The notes: generated by a model from the letters alone, not told the origin. Numbered from the stretch's first letter, positions 10,323-56,299 are shown. The stretch is 64,000 nucleotides of DNA from an uncultured Methanosarcinales archaeon (GCA_964354085.1 CAYGYA010000017.1:961-64960); one strand, 5' to 3'. Numbers and translations are program-made.

Positions 10323-13300
10323 TTAAATCAAATTCTTTGTATTCTCAATTGCGATTTGTATCTTGTTGCCAAGGGCTACGAGGGTCGGATGAATCAGTTC
10401 CTTGGTATCATCATCAAGCTGAGTGTATGCTGCTTCAATCCTCTTGTATTCTTCAAGAGAAGCAGACAGCTGGCCGTTGTTAAGCAAACCCTGGATATTA
10501 TTCACCATTACTTTCAGCTCAGCAATATTGCCCTGGGCTTGCATTGCATCGCAATATTCCTTCACCCTCACTGCTGTTTGGGAAATATTTTCATATACAT
10601 CATTCTTTGCAAGAGTTGATAGCTCGCTGTAAGCATCTTTTGCTTCATTATAAAGATCAATGGCTTTCTCATGATCGCCTCCGTCAAGATTGTCATTAAT
10701 CTCATTGAGTATGACGCTGATATAGTGAAGGCTTTTCTTGCCATAAATTCTGTAAGCAAGATACCTGGCTGTGTTGATGCCGTCGTATTTAATTCCTGCA
10801 AACACCAAGCCGCCTAGCAGTATTATTATTACTGGTATGAACATTATTCCTTTGCCTGATGGCATTTTCAGGCCCTTAATTGAGAAGCCAGTTATTTTCT
10901 GTTTAGCCTCAATTGACGCCGGGTCTACAAGCACCACAGTTTTTATTTTCTTCAGCAGTTCCAAGTCTTGATTAGCTTCAAAATAATAAGTTATGGTGGT
11001 GTCGCCTTGTAAGCCAAACTTGATGATTGGGTCTTGCATCACCACTTCATATTTCTGTGAGCTCATGATGTTATCTGCTTTCTCAGCAACATCTTTCGGT
11101 ATTATTTCCATGATGAATGCGCCTTCTGTGATGTTATAGGTTTTTATCTCCCTAAGAATAATGCTTGCATCGCTTTGAGTCCCATCTCTGTAAGTAACCC
11201 TGGCAGTTTTTACCTTGCTGGAGATTAGGACTTCTTGCTGCAAATCATTAATGAATTTCAGGAGCTCTTTCTTGCTAATGCTTAGCGAAACATTGTTTAT
11301 CTCAAGGTACTGGTCGAGCAACGCCTCTATCTCATCTGGTTTTATATAGTCAACAAATGCATCTTTGTTAAGCAGCTCAATACTTATAGGTGTTTTTTGA
11401 TAGGCTTGTTCTGCGTTCAGCACCATTTGTTCCCCTTCTGCCTGCTTATCAGCATCTGTTAGGTCTGTCCTGAAATTAAGAGCATCAAGATCTCTTATGG
11501 TGTTCTTGAAAACAGATATGCTTTCATCTATAATGCTTGAAATCCCAAGAGCTTCTGCCGCTTCTTTCTCATCTTTTGGCAGGGCATTAATGTTATCAAG
11601 GATTTGCTGGAATTCCTTAACCCAGTCGTCATATGTCTTGAAATTCCCGCTACTTGCCTGTGGCTCAGTTGTCTGGGGGGTTGGTAATGCAGCAAGGCTT
11701 CCTACATTGAACACCCAGCTAGTACTCATTCCACTTTTTCCAATCTTATCAACGCATTCAACTTTCCACCAGTAGCTTTTGTTCTCAAGCTCTATAACCC
11801 CGAATGCATGCTCAGCACTGTCACTTACCTCTATACTTCCTAGGTAGGCAAAGAAGCCATCATTTTTCTCATTGATATAGAAGCTGCAGTTAAGTGTCCT
11901 GTTGTATTCTGCTTTGAAAGCCAGCTCTGTTGTTGTGCCTGTTATTCCTGAATTATTTCCTGGCCTTATGAGAGTGATTATTGGCTCCTGGTTAATTACT
12001 GGCTCAAGGAACAGAGTAATGGTTTCGTCTTTTGTAATGTCTAAATCACTGTGGTACATTGTATAATTTTCTTTTAGGACGAATATTCCCTTTTGCCCTG
12101 GTGTTAGGTAATATCCTATTTCTCCATTTGCATCTGTTTCTTTTTCTTCATCATCAATATCAACAGTTGCTCGTGAAATAACTCCTTTTGTTACTGAGTT
12201 TTTTACAACTATTTTTACATAATAAGTATTGTCAACAGTTATGGTTATGCTGCTGTTCTTGGTGTTGTTATAAGCATCTTTAACTGAGACTGTATTGACA
12301 TAGTTCCCTGCTGTCGTATATGTTATGTTGGTTTTTTTGCCATTCTTTACTGAGCCATCGCTTAGATGCCAGGTGTAATTAAGAGTGCCAACTCCTCCTT
12401 TTGCATCTGCTTTAAGAATGACTGGAACATTCCTTCTCTGGTCATCATCAGTATCAATATCTATCTTGATATTGTTTTTTATTTCATAATTCAGTGCTTT
12501 TGCTTCTGTGAAGCCGCTGTAGTTGAAGAAAGCCTCAAGCAGATATTTGCCCTCGTAATTAGTGAACATAAGATATTCCTGGAATGGATAATTCATTACG
12601 TTCTGGGCATTGACAGGAACTTTGCATTCTACAAATCCTGGCTTGTCAGGGCAGACTTCTACCCTTATGCTTGTTCCCTGCGGAGCACTTATGGTCATCA
12701 GGATGTTATCTCCAATATTGTATTCTATTCCCGGGATGGTTATGTTAAATGTTGGCTGTGCTGGCAGCGCTTCAATCCTGAATGTCCTTGTTTCGCTTGT
12801 CTCTGAGTTATTGACATAATCATAGCAGGTTATTCCCCAAGTGTAATTTCCTGTTTCTAATGTGCTTAGCGTGGTTGTTGCAGGCTCGCTGTTTTTGGCT
12901 GTGATGCTTTTGTTCACGTTGTTGTTCAGTGTGATGTCGCAGCTGATGTTCTCTGCAATGTTGTCAAGCACAACAAAGTTGATATCTACACTAGATGCAT
13001 TTATCTGAGTCTTATTAATAGGGAAGAAGAGCACTATGGTTGGCTTTAAACTGTCAATTATGATGGTTCTTTCTTCGCTGCTCTCAGAATTGTTGTTATA
13101 ATAGCATTCAATTCTCCAGCTGTGGTTTCCTGTTGTTAGGTTTTCTGTGAATGCATTGAATCCCGGGTTGGTTATGTTGGTGTTTGTTGCTTTTGTCTCT
13201 GAGTCTATGATGAGCTTGCAATTAGTAACAGTTAGGTTGTCAAGGCCGACATAGTAATCAAAGGTTACGATTTTGTTTGAGTAGGTGTTGTTTGCTGGGG

Positions 13301-13409
13301 TCACAAGGTCAATTGTTGCTGAGGCTAATGATGTACAGAATAGCGCAAAGAGTGCTGCAACTAGCAACAAGCTAATTCTCTTTTTTGCTATTTTGTTTTG
13401 CTCACTCAT
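10323..13409 (-). CDS. Large type-I membrane surface protein with Ig-like modules, PKD domain, CarboxypepD_reg-like domain, C-terminal TM and helical cytoplasmic tail
   Basis: Signal peptide RISLLLVAALFALFCTSLASA. Three modules end in G(N/H)(Y/S)WxIxC. PKD-like GTLNYTWHLSDGSVKNGKKTNITYTTAGNYVNTVSVKDAYNN. TM is IMFIPVIIILLGGLVFAGI, followed by a ~150-aa helical tail. The ATG at 13409 overlaps the upstream stop (ATGAGTGA). Confidence 0.8.
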   Translation of the reverse strand: MSEQNKIAKKRISLLLVAALFALFCTSLASATIDLVTPANNTYSNKIVTFDYYVGLDNLTVTNCKLIIDSETKATNTNITNPGFNAFTENLTTGNHSWRIECYYNNNSESSEERTIIIDSLKPTIVLFFPINKTQINASSVDINFVVLDNIAENISCDITLNNNVNKSITAKNSEPATTTLSTLETGNYTWGITCYDYVNNSETSETRTFRIEALPAQPTFNITIPGIEYNIGDNILMTISAPQGTSIRVEVCPDKPGFVECKVPVNAQNVMNYPFQEYLMFTNYEGKYLLEAFFNYSGFTEAKALNYEIKNNIKIDIDTDDDQRRNVPVILKADAKGGVGTLNYTWHLSDGSVKNGKKTNITYTTAGNYVNTVSVKDAYNNTKNSSITITVDNTYYVKIVVKNSVTKGVISRATVDIDDEEKETDANGEIGYYLTPGQKGIFVLKENYTMYHSDLDITKDETITLFLEPVINQEPIITLIRPGNNSGITGTTTELAFKAEYNRTLNCSFYINEKNDGFFAYLGSIEVSDSAEHAFGVIELENKSYWWKVECVDKIGKSGMSTSWVFNVGSLAALPTPQTTEPQASSGNFKTYDDWVKEFQQILDNINALPKDEKEAAEALGISSIIDESISVFKNTIRDLDALNFRTDLTDADKQAEGEQMVLNAEQAYQKTPISIELLNKDAFVDYIKPDEIEALLDQYLEINNVSLSISKKELLKFINDLQQEVLISSKVKTARVTYRDGTQSDASIILREIKTYNITEGAFIMEIIPKDVAEKADNIMSSQKYEVVMQDPIIKFGLQGDTTITYYFEANQDLELLKKIKTVVLVDPASIEAKQKITGFSIKGLKMPSGKGIMFIPVIIILLGGLVFAGIKYDGINTARYLAYRIYGKKSLHYISVILNEINDNLDGGDHEKAIDLYNEAKDAYSELSTLAKNDVYENISQTAVRVKEYCDAMQAQGNIAELKVMVNNIQGLLNNGQLSASLEEYKRIEAAYTQLDDDTKELIHPTLVALGNKIQIAIENTKNLI

Positions 13410-44605: not shown

Positions 44606-45859
44606 ATGAGTGCCTCATTATTAATTTCTATAATGGGATTTTTTGATTTTCTTAAGAAAAAAGGGCCTGAGGAGCTAAGCTTTTCCAAGATAGGGGAATG
44701 GCTTGACAAGCAGGTTGCTGACAAGAAGCTGAACCAGAGAGTTGCTAATTCAAAGGACGTCATTAACAGCAAAATCCTTCAGGTTCATAAGCTGCTTGAT
44801 GAGCTTGAAAAAGCAGGCTTGAGGAACGAGAACATTCCTATGAAGGCTAAGCAGATGATGGAAGGCCACAGGAAAGCTTATATTCATAGGCTTAAGAGAT
44901 TTCTCGATGAGATGGAAGTGCCTGATGACTTCTCCCAGATAGGATTCTACGCTGCTAATTTCTCAGAATCCCTCACTAAGCTCAGCGAGGAAACCCAGAA
45001 GAATTTTTTTGTGCTCAAAGAGTTCCTTGAAGAGCCATTGTCAAAAGTGATAAAAGGAGTTAAGAGCATTGAGGATGAGCTTGTAAAGCTCCAGTCAGAT
45101 ATTGAGAGAGAAGGCATTGAGCTTATCAAGGATGCAAAAATACGCCTCAAGCAATACCAGGATGACCTGAAGAGAAAAGCTATGCTTGAAGAGGAGAAAA
45201 TAAGCCAGAGCAAAGAACTGGATTCTCTAAAGGAGAGAAAGTTCAAGCTCGAAGCCAGGCTTGATGAATTGCATCAGACTAAGGAGTATGATGAGTTCAA
45301 GGGATTATTAGATAACAAAAAGACGAATGAGGAAAGATTAAAGCAGATTGAGCATGAATTAAAGATTATGTTTGCAGAGCTGAACAGGCCTCTTAGGAAG
45401 TTCAAGCATTCCTCGCTTCAGGAGAGGCTAATAGATAAGTATTTGCTTGATCCTTTTGGTGCAATAGAGGATGATGCAAGCCTGGTTATTCTGGAAGTGC
45501 TTGCCAAGATGAAGCAGGAGCTTAGCAATCTTGAATTAAGCGATAGCCAGCTTGAAAAAGCACAAGAGCTTATTGAAAAGCTTAGCAGGGAGTTCTTCAT
45601 GGACAAGAGAATGGAGATAGACCGATTGAAAGACCTTAACAAGGATTATGCAACCAGGATTAATCATAGCGTAGTAGCTCTTAACATTGCAGAGACAGAT
45701 ACATTAATAAGAGGCTTGGGTGAGAGGGTAAACGAAGCAGAGAAGTCGCTTGAAGAAGTAAGCAAAGTGCTTGAAGAGATAAACCTTGACTTCCTAAAGC
45801 AAAAAGTAAAGGAAAGAGTAAAGGAAGTTTCTCCTAATATAATAATAAAGGATGACTGA
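44606..45859 (+). CDS. Long coiled-coil protein, function unknown
   Basis: E/K/L heptad-rich for ~400 aa. The alternative ATG at 44633 gives MGFFDFLKKKGPEE. Confidence 0.55.
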   Translation: MSASLLISIMGFFDFLKKKGPEELSFSKIGEWLDKQVADKKLNQRVANSKDVINSKILQVHKLLDELEKAGLRNENIPMKAKQMMEGHRKAYIHRLKRFLDEMEVPDDFSQIGFYAANFSESLTKLSEETQKNFFVLKEFLEEPLSKVIKGVKSIEDELVKLQSDIEREGIELIKDAKIRLKQYQDDLKRKAMLEEEKISQSKELDSLKERKFKLEARLDELHQTKEYDEFKGLLDNKKTNEERLKQIEHELKIMFAELNRPLRKFKHSSLQERLIDKYLLDPFGAIEDDASLVILEVLAKMKQELSNLELSDSQLEKAQELIEKLSREFFMDKRMEIDRLKDLNKDYATRINHSVVALNIAETDTLIRGLGERVNEAEKSLEEVSKVLEEINLDFLKQKVKERVKEVSPNIIIKDD

Positions 45860-45861
45860 AC

Positions 45862-46335
45862 ATGGTAAATCCTGATGATTCTTTTCTTAAAACTTGCCAG
45901 AAATGCAAAGCTACTTGTTGCAAAATGGGCGGGGCAGACCTTACTGAAGAAGAAATGATAAGAATTCTCAAAGCAAACCACCCTAACTTCTTTCGAAAAA
46001 TAGATAAGAACCATTATGAAATGAAAAGCAAGAAAGGAATATGCCCCTATCTGAATAATAATCATAGCTGCCAGATTCAAGACATAAAACCCTTAATGTG
46101 TAGAAGCTGGCCTATTGATACTGATTATAAAGGCAAAAAAGCAGCATTAGTTCTCATCAAATGCCCATTAATGCCATTGCTTTCCTCAAAACAGGTTAAG
46201 GAAATGAAAAAACAGGCAGGCAAAGTTCTGCCTCACATCATAAATGGCGGCTTTTGTAAATCCCAGTTATCAAAATCAGATCTTAATTTAATCTATAAAA
46301 GATTCCAGAAATTCAATAGGAGTAGTTTAACATGA
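45862..46335 (+). CDS. YkgJ/UPF0153 CxxCxxCC Zn/Fe-S-binding protein
   Basis: CQKCKATCCKMGG matches the family signature, with later C..L..N.SC and CRSWP motifs. Confidence 0.7.
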   Translation: MVNPDDSFLKTCQKCKATCCKMGGADLTEEEMIRILKANHPNFFRKIDKNHYEMKSKKGICPYLNNNHSCQIQDIKPLMCRSWPIDTDYKGKKAALVLIKCPLMPLLSSKQVKEMKKQAGKVLPHIINGGFCKSQLSKSDLNLIYKRFQKFNRSSLT

Positions 46336-46778
46336 ACAAGCTTATTTCTTTTGTCAAAGAGTTAACAAAATCAGAAGTTAAAGAGCTTAATAGCTCAGAG
46401 AGAATTGGCAGGAAATACTTTTGCATGAGCAAAGAATTAAAGCAGTTAAAGGACAGCATAAAGCTTGAGCCTTATTCTGCAGGAATATTCCTGGGAGAAT
46501 TAAAGAACAACAAGTTCATGCCCAGCATTGCTCTCCTTGACATCCTTGCAAACTATACAGACAAGAAGCTTTTCATAAACGAGAAAGGGCAGACAATGTT
46601 CCTTTATGGCAGAGATGTTTTCCCAGAGAACTTTGAAAAGTGCAGTGTTAATGAAGGCATTTGCCTTGTGCTTAATGAAGAGAATGAAGTGCTTGGCTAT
46701 GGAGAGCTTAAAAAAGACAAAAAAATAATTTTAAAACATATTCTTGACAGAGGAGACTTTCTCAGGAGGGAGCCCTAG
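46332..46778 (+). CDS. nip7: NIP7-like ribosome-biogenesis protein with PUA domain
   Basis: EPYSAGIFLGELKNNKFMPSIALLDILA, FLYGRDVF and LVLNEENEVLGYGELK follow the archaeal NIP7/UPF0113 pattern. ATGA overlap with the upstream gene. Confidence 0.7.
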   Translation: MNKLISFVKELTKSEVKELNSSERIGRKYFCMSKELKQLKDSIKLEPYSAGIFLGELKNNKFMPSIALLDILANYTDKKLFINEKGQTMFLYGRDVFPENFEKCSVNEGICLVLNEENEVLGYGELKKDKKIILKHILDRGDFLRREP

Positions 46779-47825
46779 CTATTTATTTTTGCCCTTTCCC
46801 CTACCATTCCTCTTGCCAACCACTTTTTTTCTTGACTCTTTCTCATACTTGTGCATAGTCCTTAATATGCTCGAGTCACTGATAGTCATCCCGTTAGTCT
46901 TGCTCTTCAAGTTCTCTTTAATCTCCTTGTAAGACTTGCCAGCAAGATAGTCATTGATAAGCTTCTCTTTTGCACCGAATTTGGTAGAAATGGTGTTATC
47001 ATATTTTCCTCTCGTATAACTCATGCCCGCGTCAAGGCTTAATGCAACCCTGTCAGTAATATCTGAGTAACTGTTAATGCCAGAATAGCCTTTCTTTGCT
47101 GCTTCATTAATAATCCATTTAGTCTTGTAGCCATTGTTGTACATCTCTGCAACCTTTATTGAGTCATCAAGATATTTCTGGTCAGCATTCTGGAGCAGGT
47201 TTTCAAGATAAGTATTCTTGTGTAAAGGTGTTTTCTGCTGGCTTGCCACTTGTTGCTTAGCTTGCGCAGATGCTGGTGCATAGCTCTGGATAATCTTATC
47301 ATTGTCGTACACATCAACCTTGATATCATAGGATGAGTTTATGCTTTTCACTTTTTGCTTGAAATCATTCACCAGGTCATCAAGTCCAGCACTTCTGGCT
47401 GGCGCAACAGGAGATGTTGCTTTTGGTGTTTGCTTTGGTTGCGGTGCAGGTGTTGCAGCTGGCGTTGCTGGTTGGTATGCGGGCTTTTGTGCAGCACTTG
47501 CTGAGGTTCCTGCTGGTTTGCCTCCTTGTGCACTTGGCTTGGCGCCATACTGTCCTTTTCCATTACCCCCTCCTTTGCTAGAAGCATATGCCTTGTTCAA
47601 TGGTTCTAAGATTGAAGGGCTGATTCTAACTTTGCTTTTCATATCATCCCAGATGTCATGCAAGACTTGATTCACAATCCCTCCTATCTTTTCAACTATC
47701 ACGTCGCTGTTCCTATCTAGATAGTCTGGTATGCCTTTGATACTTTTATAAGCACCCATTACTTGCTTAACTCCTTCTTCAAATTCTTTTACTCCTGGAA
47801 TTAACCTATAATTGAATCCTGTCAT
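46779..47825 (-). CDS. Hypothetical protein with central P/A/Q low-complexity linker and basic C-terminal HTH-like region
   Basis: The central stretch AQKPAYQPATPAATPAPQPKQTPKATSPVAPA is locally GC-rich. C-terminus is GKSYKEIKENLKSKTNGMTISDSSILRTMHKYEKESRKK. It is the last gene of the 47.8-55.7 kb operon (3-nt spacer). Confidence 0.45.
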   Translation of the reverse strand: MTGFNYRLIPGVKEFEEGVKQVMGAYKSIKGIPDYLDRNSDVIVEKIGGIVNQVLHDIWDDMKSKVRISPSILEPLNKAYASSKGGGNGKGQYGAKPSAQGGKPAGTSASAAQKPAYQPATPAATPAPQPKQTPKATSPVAPARSAGLDDLVNDFKQKVKSINSSYDIKVDVYDNDKIIQSYAPASAQAKQQVASQQKTPLHKNTYLENLLQNADQKYLDDSIKVAEMYNNGYKTKWIINEAAKKGYSGINSYSDITDRVALSLDAGMSYTRGKYDNTISTKFGAKEKLINDYLAGKSYKEIKENLKSKTNGMTISDSSILRTMHKYEKESRKKVVGKRNGRGKGKNK

Positions 47826-47828
47826 TTT

Positions 47829-48353
47829 TTATCCTCCTCCTGTCTTGAATAATCCTTTAATTATTCTTAATGATTCTTTGACTAGGCTATTTGTGATGGC
47901 TCCTTTGGCCAGGGTGATGATTTCTTCCAGATTAGAATTTTTTTGCTCTAATGCTGATAATTCCTCGCCATTCACAAGAATCATCTTATGATGCTCAGCA
48001 TATCTTTTTGCCCTCTCAGAATAACCTGTGTCACTCACCATGAGGCGAACGACGTTAAAGCCATTATAGTTATTTAGCTTGTGGTCGAACTCTTTCACCT
48101 CTCCAAGGCCAACATCATTATCAGGGTTAAAATGTGATTTGCATTCTATTATGTAGTATTGCCTATTCTGATGATTATACATAACAACATCATATTCTCT
48201 TCTTACAGCAAAATCCCTGTAAGGATGATTGTTTTTGTTCCACTGGTTCTTTTCTACCAGAGCATAGCCTCGCTTATTAAGGGCTTTTACTACTCTCCCT
48301 TCAAGTGAGCGTCCAAGCTCTACAGGATTTTGATATTGGTTGTTTTGCTTCAT
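47829..48353 (-). CDS. PD-(D/E)xK restriction-endonuclease-fold protein (Mrr-cat/NERD-like)
   Basis: GRSLEGRVVKALNKRGY ... EYDVVMY...YYIIECKSH gives a D...ExK catalytic arrangement. Confidence 0.65.
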   Translation of the reverse strand: MKQNNQYQNPVELGRSLEGRVVKALNKRGYALVEKNQWNKNNHPYRDFAVRREYDVVMYNHQNRQYYIIECKSHFNPDNDVGLGEVKEFDHKLNNYNGFNVVRLMVSDTGYSERAKRYAEHHKMILVNGEELSALEQKNSNLEEIITLAKGAITNSLVKESLRIIKGLFKTGGG

Positions 48354-48429
48354 TTTCCCTAATGACTCCTTCTTTCTTTACTCCATTTATCATCAAAAAT
48401 AAAAAAATAAAAAATAATTTTGTGCAAGC

Positions 48430-48690
48430 TTATTGCTGGCCAGTATTTTTAGGTACGTATCCCATTTTTTGCTTGGCATAGTCAGTTGCTTTCTTGAACC
48501 CGCCATTCTCAATTACCTTTGCTATGAGATAACCAATCCCAGCTCCGATTGCTGTATACAATGTTTTCTTTGGATGGTTGCGGACTGTATCTTCAAGCGA
48601 ATGCCCTGCTATATAGCCTGCGCCAGCGCCTATTGCTGTGTTCCTTATCCTGTTTCTCTTAACAGCGTTCTCATCTATTTTTTCATCCAT
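48430..48690 (-). CDS. Glycine-zipper small membrane protein
   Basis: AIGAGAGYIAG and AIGAGIGYLIA are GxxxG-type zipper helices. Confidence 0.6.
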   Translation of the reverse strand: MDEKIDENAVKRNRIRNTAIGAGAGYIAGHSLEDTVRNHPKKTLYTAIGAGIGYLIAKVIENGGFKKATDYAKQKMGYVPKNTGQQ

Positions 48691-48693
48691 TTT

Positions 48694-49080
48694 TTATGCA
48701 CCTCCTCCTTGTTGTTTAGTTGGTTGCTCGCCAGCTTTTTGCTGGCTTGAGTAGTACATCTTTGCCTGTCCTGCTTTTTTTCCAATCACATAACCCAGAA
48801 GAGCTCCTAATAATGCTCCTCCCCCTGTTCCTATGAGCTTGTTCTTTTTGCTGTCAGGCACTTTGCCATCAATTACCACGTCTGTAACTAGGTAGCCGGC
48901 AGTGCTTCCTCCTGCAGTTCCTATAACAGCTCCAAGGACACTGGATTTTTTCTTTTCACTCCAGTCATCTCTTGTCTTGACATACTTGCTAGCAAGATAG
49001 CTAGTCACTGCTACTCCTATACCGCCGATTGAAACGTGTTTTATTCCATCATAAAGTTTCATTTTCATTCCTCCATTCAT
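48694..49080 (-). CDS. Glycine-zipper membrane protein (three zipper helices)
   Basis: IGGIGVAVTSYLA, GAVIGTAGGSTAGYLV and GTGGGALLGALLGYVIG. The ATG at 49080 overlaps the upstream stop (ATGA). Confidence 0.6.
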   Translation of the reverse strand: MNGGMKMKLYDGIKHVSIGGIGVAVTSYLASKYVKTRDDWSEKKKSSVLGAVIGTAGGSTAGYLVTDVVIDGKVPDSKKNKLIGTGGGALLGALLGYVIGKKAGQAKMYYSSQQKAGEQPTKQQGGGA

Positions 49081-49712
49081 CCTTTCCAAATCTTTTCCTT
49101 GAACTGCTTTAGCCACTGCAATCCTCTGTAAACAAAGTAGCCTGAAACATCATTTCTTACTTCATCCATTACGCCCTTTGGATTGCCAAGAATAAAGCCA
49201 GTGCAGGCTTCTGTTTTTTCTAGAAGCTCTTTGTCAGTGCCGTCAAAAAGAGTGCCTCTTACCTGTTTCCATAATTCTCCGAACTGGTACTTTAAGTAGT
49301 CAGGCATTGCTTTGAGAATATCATCAACAGGAACCTTGTCAGTAGGATTATTGCTGCTTGGTTTTTGCGCAGAGTTAAGCTTTCTTAGCAACTCATCAAG
49401 ACTTTCTTGTTCAGTACTTTTCTTGCCATTATTATTGGCATTAGCTTCAACTCCGGGGCTAACATCACTCCCAGCATTGCTGCTTGCATAATTATTGTTA
49501 GGAGCCTCATCAATGCCAGGAGCATTTGTTGGCTCAGCAACAGGAGGAGTATAATTATTATCTTTTAGCTTGGAATCAAGCCCGTTCTCAACTATGTTCT
49601 TCCTTATCCTCTCAAACTTCTTTTCCTCAGGCTTCTTGCCCTGGCTATAGTTAGCCTTGCTGTCTTTGGTCTCATCTTCATACATCCAAAAGTATTTTTC
49701 AGTGCGGTTCAT
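49077..49712 (-). CDS. Hypothetical protein (211 aa), low-complexity N/S/P-rich middle
   Basis: ATGA overlap with the vWA gene stop (49709-49712). No motif recognised. Confidence 0.45.
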   Translation of the reverse strand: MNRTEKYFWMYEDETKDSKANYSQGKKPEEKKFERIRKNIVENGLDSKLKDNNYTPPVAEPTNAPGIDEAPNNNYASSNAGSDVSPGVEANANNNGKKSTEQESLDELLRKLNSAQKPSSNNPTDKVPVDDILKAMPDYLKYQFGELWKQVRGTLFDGTDKELLEKTEACTGFILGNPKGVMDEVRNDVSGYFVYRGLQWLKQFKEKIWKG

Positions 49713-51499
49713 ATATTAATCACCCCGGATTTTGTCAGGTCTTTGATTATAACTCCAGGAATGTCTTCTTCTTTCCTGATATTGTAGAATGCAATCTTGC
49801 TCTTGTCGCTCAGGTGCTGCATTTTCTGCGCGCTTCTTGACCTGGAGCTTCCATCTATGTAGAGAATGCTTATCCTGTTGGTGTTTGACTTGTCGTTCAG
49901 GTTATTCATCACAGAATCAAGATTGTATATGCCTCCGTCTGTTATGAGGATAATGTCTGCTTCTTTTTTTGTGCTTGAAACAAGCTTGTCAATTGCTTCT
50001 CCATCTAGTTCTGTGCCGCCATCCTGGTAATGAATCAGGTTTGAGGCTATTTTAGTATAATCTCTTGAGAATCCATAGGCATATGTTTGGCTGCTGAAAT
50101 TAACCACGCCAATCCTGCTTCCTTTTTTCAGGTATTCCTTGGCTGCGCAGAAAGCTCCAAGAACAGCATTTGATTTTGCTTCAGCAGGATTAGTCATGCT
50201 GCCAGAAGAATCTATCATCAGGATTAGATCGGGGGTTATTTTTGACTTTTGCTTTCCTACAGGGCCACCAGAATAATTAATTGCCTTTGTTATACTAGGC
50301 ATGAACTTCCCATAACTGTTAAAAACATCAATATCATTGAGAGGATTATCAGCTTCCCAGGGCTTTAAGCCTGACCTTTTACTTTCCTTGCCTGAAAAAA
50401 GTGATTCTTTGTCATTAATTCTTATTGGATAATATTCTGCAAGAATGGAATAGTATTCAATGAGCGGGTCCAAGCTTTTTCTTGGCTCTTGGTTTTGTAC
50501 TCTTCCTCTTCCCTTTCCTATCCATTGGTTTTCCTTATTCTCTTCCTTTGCTATTTCTTCTTCTGTTTTCTTAACAAAGTCAGAAATCACAACAAATTCT
50601 GAAGGCTCATCGCTTTCCTCTGCTATTTCCCTCAAAGCCCTTCTTATCTCGTTCTTATCATATGCTCTTATGCCGAACTTGTCCAAGCCTGTTAATGAAT
50701 AGGTTTGTGCTCTAGAACCTCGGCCATTGTATCTGCCACGCCCATTGCCTTTTCCATTACCTATGCCATTTCTCCCTCCCCCACTGAAGTCAGGCTCATT
50801 TTCATCAAGAAGCTCATGCACAATCTCTGCAAAGCGCTCAAGATTCTTAATAAGAACCTTATCATCTCTTTGCGTGAACATAATCTTTTCAAGCTCTAAA
50901 AGCTTGGGCTTTAGTTCTGCAGGTAATGGTAGTGTGTTGAAGTCAAATCCTGTTTTTGATTGATAAACATGGCTTAGCAGCAGGTCAACTCTAGAATCCT
51001 TGCTTAGATTTTTGTAAATATAATAAATGTCTTTGTTGTTCTTGTTAAGCATCAAGTCCAGGTTCAGGCTTACGTCAAGGAAATAATTAGTAACAGCATC
51101 TTTTTTGTCACCGCATATCTGGGATGCTTTGTGGAGCATTCTAAGCAAGTTCTTTAAGTCCCATGGTATGTCTTTGTAATGCCCTGCTTCATGGCTGAGT
51201 ATGCCTTTGAAAATAGACTCGTAGCCCATACCTTTTGCTGACAAGAAATCAACAAAACCCTTATTGATTGTAATCTGATGGTCCTGCATGTTAATGCACG
51301 CAGTTGATGTGCTTGAATCTTCTTTTATCTGAGGAGGAGGAAGCTCATAACAGTAGAGTTTGCCTTGCACTTCTTCCCATGCTTTGTCAAGAGCAGTTTC
51401 TAATGATATTAGATAGGGCTTGGCTTGGTGAGCAGGGTTAGCTCTGTTACTCTTTCCAAAATTCCTGAATATCTTGTCAAAAATAAATTCTTCTATCAT
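49709..51499 (-). CDS. HExxH metallopeptidase-like domain fused to a von Willebrand factor A domain (DUF2201-like partner of MoxR ATPases)
   Basis: GILSHEAGHY (about nt 51180-51200). G/R/N-rich linker GGGRNGIGNGKGNGRGRYNGRGSR. vWA MIDAS LILMIDSSGSMT (about nt 50195-50221), with downstream TDG. Confidence 0.75.
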   Translation of the reverse strand: MIEEFIFDKIFRNFGKSNRANPAHQAKPYLISLETALDKAWEEVQGKLYCYELPPPQIKEDSSTSTACINMQDHQITINKGFVDFLSAKGMGYESIFKGILSHEAGHYKDIPWDLKNLLRMLHKASQICGDKKDAVTNYFLDVSLNLDLMLNKNNKDIYYIYKNLSKDSRVDLLLSHVYQSKTGFDFNTLPLPAELKPKLLELEKIMFTQRDDKVLIKNLERFAEIVHELLDENEPDFSGGGRNGIGNGKGNGRGRYNGRGSRAQTYSLTGLDKFGIRAYDKNEIRRALREIAEESDEPSEFVVISDFVKKTEEEIAKEENKENQWIGKGRGRVQNQEPRKSLDPLIEYYSILAEYYPIRINDKESLFSGKESKRSGLKPWEADNPLNDIDVFNSYGKFMPSITKAINYSGGPVGKQKSKITPDLILMIDSSGSMTNPAEAKSNAVLGAFCAAKEYLKKGSRIGVVNFSSQTYAYGFSRDYTKIASNLIHYQDGGTELDGEAIDKLVSSTKKEADIILITDGGIYNLDSVMNNLNDKSNTNRISILYIDGSSRSRSAQKMQHLSDKSKIAFYNIRKEEDIPGVIIKDLTKSGVINI

Positions 51500-51505
51500 T
51501 TTTTA

Positions 51506-52840
51506 TCATCCTTTTCCTTTCAGGTAATCATAAAATACAGGGTGGTCTATTTGCTTGGCAAGCTTTTTAGCATCCTCAACCTGGTTTTTCCTTAACAGCG
51601 TAATCATCTCATACTGGTCATTTTTTATCTTTGAGAACCTGTCAACCATTTCTCCCACAGCTTCTTTTGTGATGTGCAAATAAGCAAAGTCTGTTCTTTC
51701 ATCATCCTTGAACTTCTTGACGAATTCAGGAGTAAAGTCTATCTTGTGCCATAGAAAAACAGGCTCAAGAGTGATAAGGTGCTTGGTGCTTATCTCGCTG
51801 TCACCCAGAAGCCAGGCAAGTGCCTGGGCATACTTTATTTCTGCTCTCTGGTTTCTTCCAGAGTCACTATTGTTTTTCTTGCCGCAAAGAAAGTCTTTGT
51901 AATGGCATCCCGAATAGCATTCCTCGCCAGATCTCTTTTTCCCAAATCTCATGCACGAGGTAAGCTCTGCCCTGAAAACATCATAGAGCAGGTCTGCTTC
52001 TGGGCTTATCTTAATATTGGTTATTTGGTCCCTGACTTCTTCGAGTTCCTGTGATGTTAAAAGCTCAAGCCCTGTCTTTGCTTCAATTATTTTTTTGAAC
52101 TTGTCCTGCAGAACCTGGGTCTTCTGGATTTTCTCCTCATAAGGCTCGTCTGATTTTAGCACTGCATACATTTCTTTTTCTATCTGGCTATCATTGAGTA
52201 TGTGCTCTCCCAGTTTTCTGCGGGCGCCAAGCATGTTGTGGCGTATGAGCCTGTAATCATTACCGTCTGGCTGGTCAAAAGCTACTGCTATCTCAAACCT
52301 GTCACGAACAGCCTGGCCAAGCGGGTAACCATTAGGGTCATTTGGATTAGACATTGCAAACAATGAATAATCTCCTGTTGGTATCATCTCATTAAGATAA
52401 TTCCAGTTTCCTCTGTCCAATCCTTCTAATACCAAGTTTTGCTTGTCAGGCTTGGTCTTGTTGAACTCATCAAAAATCTTTGGCTCAAGAGTAACAAATA
52501 AAGACCAGTGCACCTTCTCATTTCCTTTGTTTAACTCGCCGAAGTTAAGCCTTCCAATAATCTTTTCAATAGTAAGCTCATCACTTCCTTTGATAGAGCT
52601 TGACACAAGCACTTTTTGTGGTATGCCGTATGTAAAGCTAAGAAGGTATTCTGCAACACTGGTTTTTCCATCTCCAGGCTCTCCTATTGATAGCTGTTTT
52701 CCCTTGTTAATGCATGTAAGCATGCTTAGCAGCAGGTTTGAGTTGAACTTGTCTTTGCCAATTGAAAAATTTGGAGAGCAAAAAAACAGGTTGTTGCTTA
52801 TATAATCACAGCACCTTAACAGCTTTTCTTGCGGGAACAT
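51506..52840 (-). CDS. MoxR-like AAA+ ATPase with Cys-rich C-terminal extension
   Basis: Walker A GEPGDGKTS. Walker B IFDEFNK. MoxR-type block NLVLEGLDRGNWNY...FAMSNPNDPNGYPLGQAVRDRFEIAV. Cys cluster CMRFGKKRSGEECYSGCHYKDFLCG. The ATG at 52840 abuts the upstream TAA and follows the SD GGAGGCAGAGGTGAT. Confidence 0.8.
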   Translation of the reverse strand: MFPQEKLLRCCDYISNNLFFCSPNFSIGKDKFNSNLLLSMLTCINKGKQLSIGEPGDGKTSVAEYLLSFTYGIPQKVLVSSSIKGSDELTIEKIIGRLNFGELNKGNEKVHWSLFVTLEPKIFDEFNKTKPDKQNLVLEGLDRGNWNYLNEMIPTGDYSLFAMSNPNDPNGYPLGQAVRDRFEIAVAFDQPDGNDYRLIRHNMLGARRKLGEHILNDSQIEKEMYAVLKSDEPYEEKIQKTQVLQDKFKKIIEAKTGLELLTSQELEEVRDQITNIKISPEADLLYDVFRAELTSCMRFGKKRSGEECYSGCHYKDFLCGKKNNSDSGRNQRAEIKYAQALAWLLGDSEISTKHLITLEPVFLWHKIDFTPEFVKKFKDDERTDFAYLHITKEAVGEMVDRFSKIKNDQYEMITLLRKNQVEDAKKLAKQIDHPVFYDYLKGKG

Positions 52841-52841
52841 A

Positions 52842-54479
52842 TTAATCACCTCTGCCTCCTGTTCTGTAATGGTTTTTTTGGAGAAAATCATTCTTGCTTA
52901 GAACATCTCTATCGAGGTTAGTGCTTATCTCAACCCTGGGTGGAGGCGTTATGTTTGATGATGCTTGAGATGATTCAGCAAGCCCTCCCCATCCAGCAAA
53001 GGCCCCATCATAGGTTTGGTTAACATACTCAATTACTTCCTTGTCTTCTGGAATTGAGCCATAAGGATAAGCAAAAATATTCTTGACCAGAATGGCTTTG
53101 TCTCCAAGATAATATTCTAATGCTGTTCTTAGCCTAGCCTCTTCTTTTTTTACATCATTAATAGAACCCCTTCTCATATCTGGGTGAGAGTAGGTATGCT
53201 TGCATACTTCAAAACCTTCTTTAAGCAGATAATTGAGCTTTAGCTTTACAAGGCTTTCCTGGATAAAAGGCGCTTCTTCCTTATGATACTGGTCTACAAA
53301 ATCAATAAAGAATGATGCTTTCTTGCCAAAATCAGGGCGCTTGCTGTAGAAATCCATTAATATGCCAATTGCGCAGTCAGGATCTATTACAGGATTGCCG
53401 AATTCATCAAATACTAGCTTGTTGTTGTAAGTTGCAAACCTGAATTGTCCTTCATCAGCATCATCAAAAGTTATTACTGCTGGTTTTTTTCCTGGCTTGA
53501 GTGAGCTAAAATCCTGCTTAAGATATTCTTCTGCGCTTATTAGCTGGAAATCATGCTCATACAACTTTTGAAGATGATTCTTGAAATTCTCAGAAGAGAC
53601 AGTGAACCTGTCCTCTGGGGTTCCTATCTTATGATACATTAGAATAGGAACTTTTCCTGACACAAAAGCAGCATCTTCATTCTCAGAAAAATTAATTCTT
53701 TCATAAACAGGAGGCTCATAAGCCTGCTCTACTTTCTGTTCTAAGCCAGGCTTTTGGTTAAATGGATGAATTATTTTTGCCTTGTAAAGCCCTGTTAATC
53801 CTGCTCCTCCGATTAAAATAGAAAGAGCTGCTATTGCTGCTGGCTTAAACGCTTTGCTTCTCCTCTTGTGCAAGTGCAGCTCAAACCCATTCTCTTTTAT
53901 CAGCTCATAATTATTAAGAAAGAATTCGTGCCCAGCATTGTCAATTAGTGTTTTGCTTTGTTTTAAGCTCCTGTACGCAGATATTAATTTTTCTTTTATT
54001 TCGCTTTTTATTCCCAGGGTTTGTTCATTTGCTGGTTCATCTTCATGATTTCTTAGTTCTCTTTTTAGCCTAGAATATTCTAAGGCAATGTTCTTTAAGT
54101 TTCTTCCAGATTCAGTAAACTTATCAGATAGTAGCTTGATTGAGTTATAGGCAGATAAATATTTTTTTGGTCTGACTCTGCCTTTTTCATCCTTGTAATC
54201 AAATGGTCTTTGCTCAAGCCTGTAAGCCAGATTAAGAATTGATAAAGTTCTGCATTCTTCTTGAACTAAATTGGTTCTTGCATTTCCTAGGCTTATTTCT
54301 AATTCAGAAGGAACATCCTCTTTCTGAACTTCAAAGGGGATTTCTTCTTTCTGCATTTCAGAGGGATGATTATCCTCTACAGGATTTGTAACTATTTTTT
54401 CTAGCTCAGGAGTTTTTTTCTCATACTGAGCATTGTTTTCTTTGCTTTTTTTCTTTTCAAATATCCTTAAGCCGAGCAT
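52842..54479 (-). CDS. Bitopic membrane polysaccharide deacetylase (NodB/CE4) with ~215-aa cytoplasmic helical N-domain
   Basis: TM AAIAALSILIGGAGLTGLY. NodB motifs are VPILMYHKIG, AVITFDDADEGQF, CKHTYSHPDM and FAYPYGS. Confidence 0.8.
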   Translation of the reverse strand: MLGLRIFEKKKSKENNAQYEKKTPELEKIVTNPVEDNHPSEMQKEEIPFEVQKEDVPSELEISLGNARTNLVQEECRTLSILNLAYRLEQRPFDYKDEKGRVRPKKYLSAYNSIKLLSDKFTESGRNLKNIALEYSRLKRELRNHEDEPANEQTLGIKSEIKEKLISAYRSLKQSKTLIDNAGHEFFLNNYELIKENGFELHLHKRRSKAFKPAAIAALSILIGGAGLTGLYKAKIIHPFNQKPGLEQKVEQAYEPPVYERINFSENEDAAFVSGKVPILMYHKIGTPEDRFTVSSENFKNHLQKLYEHDFQLISAEEYLKQDFSSLKPGKKPAVITFDDADEGQFRFATYNNKLVFDEFGNPVIDPDCAIGILMDFYSKRPDFGKKASFFIDFVDQYHKEEAPFIQESLVKLKLNYLLKEGFEVCKHTYSHPDMRRGSINDVKKEEARLRTALEYYLGDKAILVKNIFAYPYGSIPEDKEVIEYVNQTYDGAFAGWGGLAESSQASSNITPPPRVEISTNLDRDVLSKNDFLQKNHYRTGGRGD

Positions 54480-54485
54480 TTCCCT

Positions 54486-55670
54486 TTACCCCTTTATTTT
54501 GCCTGTTTTTGAATCATAGCGAGAAGGATATTCCTTTATTGTGCGCTCTGAAGAAGCTTTTGCTTCAATATTGCCTGGAAGCCAAAATCTTTCCTGCTGT
54601 CCTGGCTTGATGCTTGGTATGAGCTCCTGGTTATACTTCATAATGTCAATAATCTTGTTGAGGCTTATGTTGTTCCTTACCATTGCTTGCGCCAAACTTT
54701 CTCCTTGTTTTTTTACAAAAGAATTCTTAGGCTCTTTGCCTTTTTCAAATGATTCCAGGCTTGCTTGGGTTGTGTATTCTTCAGGTATGACTACCAGGTC
54801 GCCCATGAGAATTTCAATCCTGGGACCATTTCGAGTGCTTTCTATGCTCATATTATTATACTCTGCGAGCTTTCTCCAGTTTGATGAACCGCCTGTGTAT
54901 TTCTGCGCTATTCCTGCCAGAGTTTCTCCTCTTGTCTGAACAAAAACTCCAAGAATCTTATTACTTGATTGCCCTTGTTCTCTTATATAAGGAGCTAGGC
55001 TTTCTTCTTCTCCCTCTGCCCTGTTTTCCAGGCTTGGGCTGGTTGTGATTGCTTTCTTTAGTTGCTCATTCTCAAATTTAAGATTTTCAGTTTCCTTAGT
55101 AGCAAGTTCCAACTGGTTCTTGTACTCGAATTTCATGCCAGTAGTTTTTTCTAATTCGCCTATGATATTCCTTTTTTCATTCTCTTTTGCATCAAGCTCT
55201 TTTTTAGTATAGTCTTTTTGTTTCTGAAGCTCTTGCTCTGTCTGTTTGCTCTTTTCTTCTGCCTGCTTAACTTTCTCCTTGTTGTCAAGAGAATTTTTTA
55301 TTCCTTCATAGCCTTCTTTTACCTCTTCGACCACATAGGTTTTAGCTCCTCCTATCTTGTCAACAACTTCCCTTATATGGCAGACTCCGTATGATAATCC
55401 AATCACTGTTGTAAGAGCAACAGCTTTCCCTAGAAAGCCTCTCTCATTCTTCTCAGGCCCTTTCTTATATTTTACAAACTTATAAGCCTTAGAGCCGACA
55501 TAACCTGCTAATATAACAGGAGCAGCTATTACTGTGCCAGCTCCTATCAGTGTTTTTCTTAGAATATGCTTTTTCTTTGGTTGGCCACTTAATTGCTGGC
55601 TCATCTGAGCTCTTATTTCCTTTTCAGTAACCTGGTCCAGGCTCGGATCTTTTTTAAAAAAGTCATTCAT
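54486..55670 (-). CDS. Membrane protein with two TM segments, coiled coil and two LysM-like domains
   Basis: TMs are LIGAGTVIAAPVILAGYVG and AVALTTVIGLSYGV. LysM-like are TRGETLAGIAQKYTGGSSNWRKLAEYNNM...GDLVVIP and KQGESLAQAMVRNNISLNKIIDIMKYNQ...PGQQERFWLPG. Confidence 0.65.
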   Translation of the reverse strand: MNDFFKKDPSLDQVTEKEIRAQMSQQLSGQPKKKHILRKTLIGAGTVIAAPVILAGYVGSKAYKFVKYKKGPEKNERGFLGKAVALTTVIGLSYGVCHIREVVDKIGGAKTYVVEEVKEGYEGIKNSLDNKEKVKQAEEKSKQTEQELQKQKDYTKKELDAKENEKRNIIGELEKTTGMKFEYKNQLELATKETENLKFENEQLKKAITTSPSLENRAEGEEESLAPYIREQGQSSNKILGVFVQTRGETLAGIAQKYTGGSSNWRKLAEYNNMSIESTRNGPRIEILMGDLVVIPEEYTTQASLESFEKGKEPKNSFVKKQGESLAQAMVRNNISLNKIIDIMKYNQELIPSIKPGQQERFWLPGNIEAKASSERTIKEYPSRYDSKTGKIKG

Positions 55671-55864
55671 TGTACCATCCCTCCATTTTGTTTTAATTCT
55701 TTTTACAGAATTCTGTTTAGGTGAGGTGTTTAAAATAGGCTCCTGCGAAAAAATCGGAGAAAAAGCACAAAACCCGAAAGAATTAACAGGTTGTCCGGAA
55801 GAGGCTTATAAATCGCACAATAAAATCATGCTTGAAATAAACACAGAATAGACCTGATCAAAAA

Positions 55865-56299
55865 TCACTCATTAAAGAACTCTTCCTTTTTTATGTGCTC
55901 AACAACGTCATGGTGCTCTAGCTTCTGGATGTTGAAGTTTCTGAGTTCATCAAGAAAGATATAGAATTCTTTCATTGTGGGAAAAATCGCATCAATAAGG
56001 TAATCATAAGTGCTGATTCTGAACACAGAATTGATGTTCTTTTGGTCGTCAAGGTAGCTGAGCAATTCTTTCTTGTTCCTGCTCTTGACAAAAACAAAAT
56101 TCCTGTAGAAGAAGCCTATTTTCCTGAAGTCAATGAAGGATGAGTGCTTGGTTATGACCTTGTTTTTTCTAAGCTTCTGGTAGTTGTCAAAAACAGTTGT
56201 GACTGGGATGCCTGTCTCCCTGCTTATCTCGCTGAAGTTCTTTCTCGCATTATTCCTGAGGTGCTTTAGGATGAGAATGTTGTTATTGTTCATCTTCAT
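55865..56299 (-). CDS. Lrp/AsnC-family transcription regulator
   Basis: ILILKHLRNNARKNFSEISRETGIPVTTVFDNYQKLRKNKVI is an HTH_AsnC pattern, followed by a RAM-like C-domain. Start taken at MKMNNNN (ATG at 56299). Confidence 0.75.
   Translation of the reverse strand: MKMNNNNILILKHLRNNARKNFSEISRETGIPVTTVFDNYQKLRKNKVITKHSSFIDFRKIGFFYRNFVFVKSRNKKELLSYLDDQKNINSVFRISTYDYLIDAIFPTMKEFYIFLDELRNFNIQKLEHHDVVEHIKKEEFFNE

Follow-up and report, generated by a model that had tools for sequence, protein, structure and literature searches.

The window analysed here, a 64,000-nucleotide stretch of one strand from an uncultured Methanosarcinales archaeon (GCA_964354085.1 CAYGYA010000017.1:961-64960), carries nine tightly packed minus-strand genes at positions 46779-55670, labelled g1 to g9 in transcription order, with an Lrp-type gene, g0, upstream of g1 (Table 1). 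We tentatively read this cluster as a lineage-specific, vertically inherited mosaic of three separable parts in a Woesearchaeota (DPANN) archaeon, i.e., an Lrp-linked surface module, an accessory maturation cassette made of a MoxR ATPase and a zincin-like von Willebrand factor A (vWA) protein, and an independent nuclease. This lineage-specific cluster is undescribed, and the chaperone pair in it, although of a known type, is an unstudied variant. We observed directly the order and domains of the genes, their conserved catalytic motifs, their conservation among relatives, independent losses and the joint loss of the MoxR-vWA pair with the N-terminus of g5; from these observations we infer a target polymer, a client role for g5 and the boundaries of the transcription units. 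An initial annotation of the window had offered two readings. The first, in which all nine genes form one vWA-MoxR sensing system with glycine-zipper and nuclease proteins as its effectors, fails on separate losses of the modules, a fixed locus and the lack of a PADLOC match; the second, envelope remodelling, proves the better of the two.

Conservation and separate losses of the cluster modules

All named relatives are metagenome-assembled genomes of Woesearchaeota or Nanoarchaeia, and CDC48, GatD/E, ThrRS and KsgA are among the archaeal housekeeping genes of the window. The same gene order recurs in at least ten independent contigs (group A: L001, L003, L006-L008, L010 and L017-L020), with protein identities to the window of 30-93%, which argues that the arrangement is more than chance. 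The group A locus is fixed, lying between ThrRS/KsgA/Lrp and a conserved gene of 407-417 amino acids. The MoxR-vWA pair is missing from two more loci at this chromosomal position: L015 is organized as Lrp-g1-g2-g5C-g6-g7-Mrr-g9 and L016 as Lrp-g1-g2-g5C-glycine zipper-g9, g5C being the C-terminal domain of g5. In neighbour-joining trees of the flanking 407-amino-acid protein, g9 and Lrp, L015 pairs with L010 and L016 with L006/L001. Both loci are thus nested inside lineages that bear MoxR-vWA, and the cassette was therefore lost twice, secondarily.

These two losses single out g5, for which Pfam, NCBIfam and PHROG gave no family match, in agreement with its initial description as unknown. In group A, g5 always follows the vWA gene, and in every MoxR-vWA-bearing locus it has an N-terminal extension of ~60-100 residues with a "KYF" motif. 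The homologues in L015 and L016 comprise the C-terminal domain only (E 1e-21 and 1e-7, respectively), and there is no room upstream for the extension. Since the N-terminal extension of g5 disappeared in both lineages that lost MoxR-vWA, g5 is likely a client or adaptor of the MoxR-vWA pair.

A second clade (group B: L009, L011, L097 and L098) occupies a different conserved locus (L35Ae...Alba, S17e) and has Lrp-Mrr-MoxR-vWA plus a g5-like gene, with no g1, g2, g6, g7 or g9. Independent occurrence of the genes in related genomes, which the initial annotation had named as one finding that would undo its proposal, is seen in part.

The MoxR/HExxH-vWA cassette

The MoxR assignment of g3 is borne out by an AAA_5 match above the Pfam cut-off (1.6e-6, 28.6 bits) and by a family profile built from 14 relatives (A6), which matches the MoxR structure 2r44 (6.6e-6) and then BchI/ChlI (1g8p, 8.8e-5). 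The Walker A and Walker B motifs, GEPGDGKT and FDEF, are invariant in A6. The C-terminal part of g3 family members also has a C-x11-C-x3-C-H-x5-C cluster (residues 296-319: C296, C308, C312, H313 and C319) that is invariant and may be a Zn or Fe-S site; to our knowledge, such a cluster is not a feature of MoxR proteins. McrBC-type restriction was considered and rejected, as the g3 profile retrieves MoxR and BchI but no McrB, and the nuclease and ATPase are lost independently.

The HExxH motif and the vWA domain first proposed for g4 are also confirmed. The protein matches VWA_2 in Pfam (4.8e-8; VWA also matches), and among 22 relatives H103, E104 and H107 are near-invariant and the residues of the metal ion-dependent adhesion site (MIDAS), D430, S432, S434, T496 and D521, are invariant. 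An AlphaFold2 model, with a mean predicted local distance difference test (pLDDT) score of 77 and a predicted template modelling score of 0.71, consists of a helical N-domain and a vWA domain; the HExxH is part of helix 93-109, which comes after three short strands, with D114 and D142 as candidate third ligands. Foldseek with the whole protein against the PDB retrieved vWA domains only (integrin I with probability 1.00, Ssl1, NorD and Ro60), and a sequence profile against the PDB gave nothing meaningful. For the HExxH domain, Pfam, NCBIfam and PDB sequence searches returned no match, nor was there a fold match to a known peptidase.

This architecture is widespread. An exhaustive profile search yielded 1162 representative clusters (50% identity, a lower bound), 289 of them at E<=1e-30. 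The 147 representatives examined match along most of their own length, most of them with HExxHxxxxPxD and (I/L)DSSGSMxxP motifs, and about one fifth lack the HExxH. In these and in all 22 aligned members the vWA is the C-terminal domain, and the N-terminal HExxH domain is the sole extra one. A metagenome scan found 475 relatives, and in about 60 of the 80 loci examined MoxR is followed by a 223-256-amino-acid protein with a weak GXGXG (PF01493) match and then by the vWA gene. Across the loci analysed, in which 72 MoxR and 89 vWA genes were recognised, MoxR is mostly directly upstream of vWA or separated from it by the ~230-amino-acid GXGXG gene only. The GXGXG protein occurs between or next to MoxR and HExxH-vWA in L022-L096, L099 and L100 (e.g., L039:7154-7855), in bacteria and archaea. 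Some of the distant loci are bacterial, with PBP1A or Lon adjoining, others archaeal (e.g., L099 and L100), and their contexts include HD, APH and SpoIIE; no common functional theme was found among the neighbours. Mrr, glycine-zipper, LysM, CE4 and g9 genes are absent from all of the ~60 distant MoxR-GXGXG-vWA loci analysed. As the distant loci are without the other seven genes, the cassette is self-contained and was acquired as a unit by the Woesearchaeota cluster, where g5 appears to stand in place of the GXGXG partner.

The three-gene MoxR-GXGXG-vWA cassette appears to be undescribed, and no paper turned up in a literature search that combined MoxR with GXGXG. DUF2201_N and DUF2201 are putative metallopeptidase and VWA-like domains that neighbour MoxR-like ATPases. 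Their HExxH-then-vWA logic beside an AAA_5 ATPase is like that of g4 and makes them a lead, with scores below threshold here: Pfam DUF2201 is sub-threshold in 6 of 22 members (best E 0.032, or 0.0018 in one distant member; best score 18.9 bits against a cut-off of 26.4), and DUF2201_N is absent. The literature on DUF2201 that we found holds a passing mention only, with no functional study.

Like g3 and g4, the pairs NorQ-NorD, CbbQ-CbbO, RavA-ViaA, CoxD-CoxE and BchI-BchD each combine an adjacent MoxR/BchI-type AAA+ ATPase and a MIDAS-bearing vWA partner, and the vWA fold of NorD is among the matches of the g4 model. The cassette passes the sequence tests of NorQ/NorD-, CbbQ/CbbO- and BchI/BchD-type pairs and is predicted to work as they do. 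The expected mode of such chaperone pairs is capture of a client peptide by the MIDAS followed by ATP-driven remodelling (PMC7159879). In contrast to the known pairs, g4 has an N-terminal helical HExxH domain that resembles no Pfam, NCBIfam or PDB entry in sequence searches, g3 has a conserved Cys/His cluster, a third partner is present (the GXGXG protein in the wider family, g5 in the clade of the window), and no metalloenzyme client is encoded nearby except the extracytoplasmic CE4 protein.

The cluster might instead be a juxtaposition without functional coupling, in which unrelated functions share a compact operon of a streamlined genome, kept by synteny, and MoxR-vWA serves an unlinked client. 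We consider this explanation doubtful, yet three observations speak for it: each module is lost or decays alone (L015, L016 and L097), the wider MoxR-vWA family occurs in unrelated contexts, and the group A loci are orthologous positions, so that their conserved order is not independent evidence of function. It does not account for the precise loss of the g5 N-terminal extension that twice accompanied MoxR-vWA loss, nor for the ATGA overlaps and 1-6-nt gaps, pointing to translational coupling, that thread the cassette between envelope genes. Also against it, vWA is followed in group B, L013 and L024 by a g5-like gene whose N-terminus has a comparable aromatic-acidic motif, recognised by eye or at weak E-values only.

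An independently evolving nuclease

The nuclease fold proposed for g8 is confirmed by an Mrr_cat match of 33.7 bits against a cut-off of 21, and the catalytic E..D..ExK residues are kept in 13/13 family members. The D/E/K residues and the MoxR and vWA profile assignments, whose failure would have overturned the initial proposal, thus both hold up.

Comparison with L017, the closest relative, separates g8 from the genes before it. DNA identity is 92-100% in most 150-nt intervals across g1-g7 and drops to 67-77% from precisely the g7/g8 gap through g8 (47829-48429 in the window versus L017:8094-8692). In line with this, the g8 proteins are 63% identical, against 98.6-100% for g3, g5, g6 and g7. 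The difference is best read as an allele replacement or a recombination breakpoint. The g7/g8 gap contains a T-rich tract, similar gaps lie 5' of Mrr in most group A loci, and from its sequence this gap is likely an archaeal terminator with an internal promoter, which would make g8-g9 a separate unit. Given the gap and the identity break against L017, the nuclease therefore has signals and a history of its own. The Mrr gene of L097 is a frameshifted pseudogene (L097:4022-4696), broken into parts in three frames with a stop codon in frame, next to intact MoxR and vWA genes, and L016 has no Mrr gene. Collectively, g8 probably has an autonomous DNA-directed function.

Comparison with vWA-MoxR conflict systems

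A MoxR and vWA core accompanied by a small conserved third protein, with a nuclease and membrane proteins nearby, resembles the vWA-MoxR ternary conflict systems, whose third components are VMAP, iSTAND, FtsH or beta-propeller proteins (Kaur, Burroughs, Iyer, Aravind 2020, PMC7159879). By this analogy, the cluster would be a nucleoside triphosphate (NTP)-dependent conflict, defence or abortive-infection system in which sensing of an invader by MoxR-vWA would set free the glycine-zipper proteins, as pore formers, and the Mrr nuclease. Such a role is unlikely in our view. MoxR-vWA cores do serve this way in bacteria (PMC7159879); g8 keeps its catalytic residues and shows weak likeness to CARF-associated and Card1-type nuclease domains; its allele is apparently replaced in a relative that is otherwise 92-100% identical; the Lrp-Mrr-MoxR-vWA linkage is retained in the second clade; and the cluster proteins are fast-evolving.

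However, adjacent MoxR and vWA genes are the one of four defining features of the ternary systems that the cluster displays, and it fails the other three. Neither g5 nor its neighbours gave a Pfam or NCBIfam match to VMAP, iSTAND, FtsH or a beta-propeller component; VMAP-C is alpha+beta as described in PMC7159879, whereas g5 is mostly low-complexity and without such a domain. The effectors of ternary systems are C-terminal to the vWA, whereas the vWA of g4 is itself C-terminal, with no effector fused to it and no effector array. Ternary systems are sporadic and island-like with effector turnover, whereas the present cluster has native composition and a fixed chromosomal locus and is inherited vertically, its trees being congruent with those of flanking genes; turnover at loci of this type is limited to the g1/g2 ectodomains and the g8 allele. 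Finally, those systems belong to multicellular bacteria, whereas here the host is a DPANN archaeon in which modules are lost independently: L015 and L016 keep the supposed effectors although the supposed sensor is gone, the sensor stands beside a dead nuclease in L097, and the wider MoxR-vWA family carries no effectors at the loci analysed. No PADLOC-DB v2 model matched at a significant level; the best was a partial match of g8 to the CARF_PDDEXK nuclease domain (5.6e-5), and g3, g4, g5, g6 and g9 had none. Searches of IMG/VR with g4 and g9 likewise found no relatives in viral contigs.

The proposed surface module

Genes g1 and g2 encode a membrane-anchored pair. The LysM first assigned to g1 is weak in Pfam (E 1.1e-3, 19.3 bits, under the cut-off of 20.9), and PHROG endolysin and baseplate families containing LysM match the same residues and back it; g1 orthologues are found in L010, L015, L016, L017 and L020. 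The NodB/CE4 assignment of g2 stands on firm ground (Polysacc_deac_1, 1.5e-9, 38.3 bits against a cut-off of 23.1). Its metal and catalytic motifs TFDD and HTYSH are present in the translation, motif 3 is without the usual Arg (AYPYG), and its best PDB relative is 6dq3.

The two genes vary as a pair. LysM occurs with CE4 in the window, L010, L017 and L020, and a YkuD pair takes their positions in L001, L003 and L008, where the YkuD at the g1 position is without the canonical His/Cys pair and that at the g2 position has an intact HG...SxGCVR motif. The YkuD genes at the g1 position lie at L001:6093-7229, L003:6116-7333 and L008:5603-6865 and have the motif ...LCG...TNGG(I/V)(V/I)M.... A dead YkuD beside an active one parallels LysM beside CE4, which argues that the first position would be that of a wall-polymer binder and the second that of a wall-polymer modifier. 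Peptidoglycan is the sole substrate common to LysM, CE4 and YkuD, and is for this reason the likely target.

Of the two proposed glycine-zipper proteins, g6 is above the Pfam cut-off and is conserved in group A, L015 and L016, and g7 falls just under the cut-off. The latter has an OsmB-like NCBIfam match, and the hidden Markov models of g6 and g7 cross-match each other. A hydropathy scan detected hydrophobic segments in g1, g2 and g6 and no transmembrane (TM) segment in g3, g4, g5, g8 or g9; for g7, the Pfam glycine-zipper match suggests that it is also membrane-associated.

Woesearchaeota and Pacearchaeota are reported to encode murein-directed surface proteins, including giant lytic-transglycosylase proteins, which are read as serving attachment to or attack on bacterial walls (PMC8204110, PMC9723730). 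The present proteins are alike in that bacterial-type wall domains are displayed by DPANN archaea. They differ in that the known proteins are lytic and giant, whereas non-lytic LysM, CE4 and YkuD domains here sit on small membrane-anchored proteins, as a binder/enzyme pair whose operon also encodes glycine-zipper proteins and a chaperone cassette. No paper was found in a literature search for DPANN combined with YkuD.

The same ectodomains could act on the archaeon's own wall polymer, the cluster then being a cell-wall maturation operon. That the proteins are membrane-anchored rather than secreted, that the locus is housekeeping-like and stable, and that the CE4 domain resembles wall- and exopolysaccharide deacetylases would suit such a function. 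We nonetheless hold it to be distinctly unlikely, given that murein-directed Woesearchaeota enzymes are read as aimed at bacterial walls (PMC8204110, PMC9723730) and that fast evolution and domain swapping of g1/g2 fit a changing external target; no wall-synthesis genes were found among the window open reading frames (ORFs) scanned, which cover a small part of the genome. With the glycine-zipper proteins taken as "holins" and the LysM/CE4 proteins as "endolysin-like", the cluster would be a remnant provirus or a lysis cassette. This reading is suggested by the PHROG endolysin and baseplate matches of the g1 LysM region and by small membrane proteins adjoining wall-directed enzymes, yet was rejected as highly improbable: the PHROG matches span the LysM repeat only, there is no muralytic catalytic domain, neither CE4 nor YkuD being lytic, the cluster genes and flanking ORFs scanned include no integrase, capsid or terminase, g4 and g9 have no IMG/VR relatives, and composition is native at a stable orthologous locus.

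The Lrp-type regulator and the upstream element

With orthologues 58-68% identical, g0 is the best-conserved protein of the cluster and forms a conserved tenth member upstream. Because the orthologues are 144 amino acids long, its true start is probably ATG 56299 (144 amino acids) and not GTG 56368, from which the listed ORF carries an extra hydrophobic leader of 23 residues. A g0-type gene is adjacent in group B loci as well, and in L011 the Lrp stop codon abuts the Mrr start.

Between g0 and g1 lies a conserved element common to all group A loci, including the YkuD variants and the loci without MoxR-vWA (alignment A5, 9 loci). Its TYCSGR boxes, TTCCGGAC, TTTCGGGT and TCTCCGAT, are spaced ~20 nt apart and are followed by an invariant, TATA-like TATTTTAAACAC. 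A 34-nt core of the element occurs once in the window, and 0/100 shuffles match it. The three-box element, with CGCAGGAGCCTATTTTAAACACC after the boxes, is kept among loci whose proteins are merely 30-45% identical. Read from its sequence, the element is probably a promoter (TATA box) with upstream Lrp operator sites, and transcription is predicted to start ~25 nt downstream of TATTTTAAA (window ~55700). An RNA-structure reading of the element was rejected on inspection, as the boxes are upstream of the TATA-like box and the sole candidate stem has mismatches and no compensatory changes.

Gene layout, g9 and flanking genes

All nine ORFs are present at the coordinates first noted (Table 1). 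Nearly all junctions also match the initial description, except that the g2 stop and g3 start, given as abutting, are separated by one nucleotide, and that the gap before the nuclease gene measures 76 rather than 77 nt. An alternative GTG start for g3 exists at 52849. Most cluster starts have a GGAGG-type ribosome-binding motif 5' of them, and the GC content of the cluster region, 0.39-0.41, is the same as that of the remaining window.

Table 1. Coordinates of the cluster genes, their junctions and associated elements in the window
Feature	Coordinates	Strand	Description
g0, Lrp/AsnC-type helix-turn-helix (HTH) regulator	55865..56299	minus	weak NCBIfam AsnC and Lrp matches; orthologues 144 amino acids
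Conserved element 5' of g1	55725..55800	minus	~75 nt; three TYCSGR boxes, then TATA-like box
g1, membrane protein	54486..55670	minus	two hydrophobic Gly-rich segments, coiled coil, two LysM-like repeats
g1/g2 junction	54480-54485	minus	6-nt gap
g2, CE4/NodB deacetylase	52842..54479	minus	cytoplasmic N-terminal region, one TM segment (214-232), extracytoplasmic CE4
g2/g3 junction	g2 stop TAA 52844-52842; g3 ATG 52840	minus	one T between; 1-nt spacer
g3, MoxR-type AAA+ ATPase	51506..52840	minus	Walker A GEPGDGKT, Walker B FDEF, Cys/His cluster
g3/g4 junction	51500-51505	minus	6-nt gap
g4, cytoplasmic two-domain protein	49709..51499	minus	N-terminal HExxH (zincin-like) helical domain and C-terminal vWA with complete MIDAS
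g4/g5 junction	49709-49712	minus	ATGA overlap
g5, family-less protein	49077..49712	minus	N-terminal "KYF" extension, low-complexity linker, conserved C-terminal domain
g5/g6 junction	49077-49080	minus	ATGA overlap, provided g6 starts at ATG 49080
g6, small glycine-zipper membrane protein	48694..49080	minus	Rick_17kDa_Anti 2.9e-6, over cut-off; hydropathy scan
g6/g7 junction	48691-48693	minus	3-nt gap
g7, small glycine-zipper membrane protein, g6 paralogue	48430..48690	minus	Rick_17kDa_Anti 5.3e-5, 23.5 bits against cut-off of 24.2
g7/g8 junction (intergenic gap)	48354..48429	minus	76-nt gap; 23-nt oligo-T tract 48395-48417, then A/T-rich box
g8, stand-alone Mrr_cat PD-(D/E)xK nuclease domain	47829..48353	minus	Mrr_cat 4.3e-8; C-terminal amphipathic helix
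g8/g9 junction	47826-47828	minus	3-nt gap
g9, family-less protein	46779..47825	minus	N-terminal helices, P/A/Q-rich linker, small beta unit, all-helical and strongly conserved C-terminal domain 206-331, basic tail

The last gene of the cluster, g9, is present in every group A locus and also in L015 and L016. Its 20 homologues are all from Woesearchaeota or Nanoarchaeia, and their alignment (A3) has 32 invariant positions. In the AlphaFold2 model, pLDDT exceeds 90 at residues 206-331 only, a region that is all helical. Pfam and PHROG searches gave no match, NCBIfam matches were insignificant (E at least 0.02), and fold searches of the PDB and BFVD returned nothing significant, the best being RecX at E 0.53; the HTH initially ascribed to g9 was not confirmed in the Pfam, NCBIfam and fold searches.

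Downstream, g9 converges with a plus-strand gene of 148 amino acids (46332-46778), with zero spacer between the stop codons; the L015 orthologue of this gene has pre-PUA_NIP7 and UPF0113 matches. A 417-amino-acid coiled-coil protein without a family match (44606-45859, plus) flanks the cluster on the opposite strand in every group A locus and is 56-66% identical. Elsewhere in the window, two very large adjacent minus-strand proteins, one of 1263 amino acids (6492-10283; HerA/DUF87, CarboxypepD_reg and DUF5752) and one of 1028 amino acids (10323-13409; PKD), are possibly surface- or secretion-related.

A model for the cluster and its implications

In the three-part mosaic that we tentatively prefer, the surface and membrane set would comprise g1, g2, the C-terminal domain of g5, g6, g7 and g9, placed behind a promoter/operator beside the Lrp-type regulator. 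Here g1, as LysM or as a YkuD without catalytic activity, would be a binder anchored in the membrane, and g2, as a CE4 deacetylase or an active YkuD L,D-transpeptidase, a modifier anchored likewise, so that the membrane complex would display domains that bind and chemically modify a wall polymer containing N-acetylglucosamine and peptide, most plausibly the peptidoglycan of a bacterial partner. The optional g3-g4 cassette would engage the g5 N-terminal extension through the vWA MIDAS site or the zincin-like domain. Remodelling of g5 by the ATPase, or its processing by the HExxH domain, would make the cassette a maturation or assembly factor for the surface set, and the g5 extension would be dispensable once the cassette is gone, as expected of a pro-region or docking peptide. 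The Mrr-type nuclease g8 would be separately signalled and independently evolving.

Several observations weigh against this model. The CE4 domain of g2 is closest to PgaB/IcaB/PplD-type deacetylases (NCBIfam and PDB), and for this reason g2 could act on an exopolysaccharide or on a wall polymer of the archaeon itself rather than on bacterial peptidoglycan; the LysM of g1 scores under the Pfam threshold, and g9 is without assignable function. The g4-g5 client model draws on two co-loss events and gene adjacency. Linkage of Lrp, Mrr, MoxR, vWA and a g5-like gene elsewhere in the second clade (L009, L011 and L098) hints at a Mrr-MoxR link, which the model treats as incidental. Finally, between the window and L010, the cluster proteins are 30-51% identical against 57-73% for their neighbours, i.e., they evolve about twice as fast, which also fits a conflict role.

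A bolder version of the model is improbable in its entirety. It posits an undescribed apparatus that engages the cell wall of a partner, a glycine-zipper complex with an interchangeable binder/enzyme pair, whose active YkuD could covalently tether the archaeon to bacterial peptidoglycan and whose assembly the MoxR/zincin-vWA pair would license by removing or remodelling the g5 N-terminal pro-region.

For the study of MoxR proteins, the analysis exposes a large MoxR/HExxH-vWA family with a usual GXGXG partner and an N-terminal domain for which there is no Pfam model, and the double co-loss of MoxR-vWA and the g5 N-terminus is a natural experiment indicating the client. It also cautions that a MoxR-vWA-nuclease neighbourhood alone is not enough to call a defence system. 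Few candidate molecular parts are known by which DPANN archaea could attach to other cells and exploit them, and this locus offers a compact candidate set, with a swappable pair of bacterial-type wall domains, small membrane proteins and a conserved promoter/operator beside a likely regulator.

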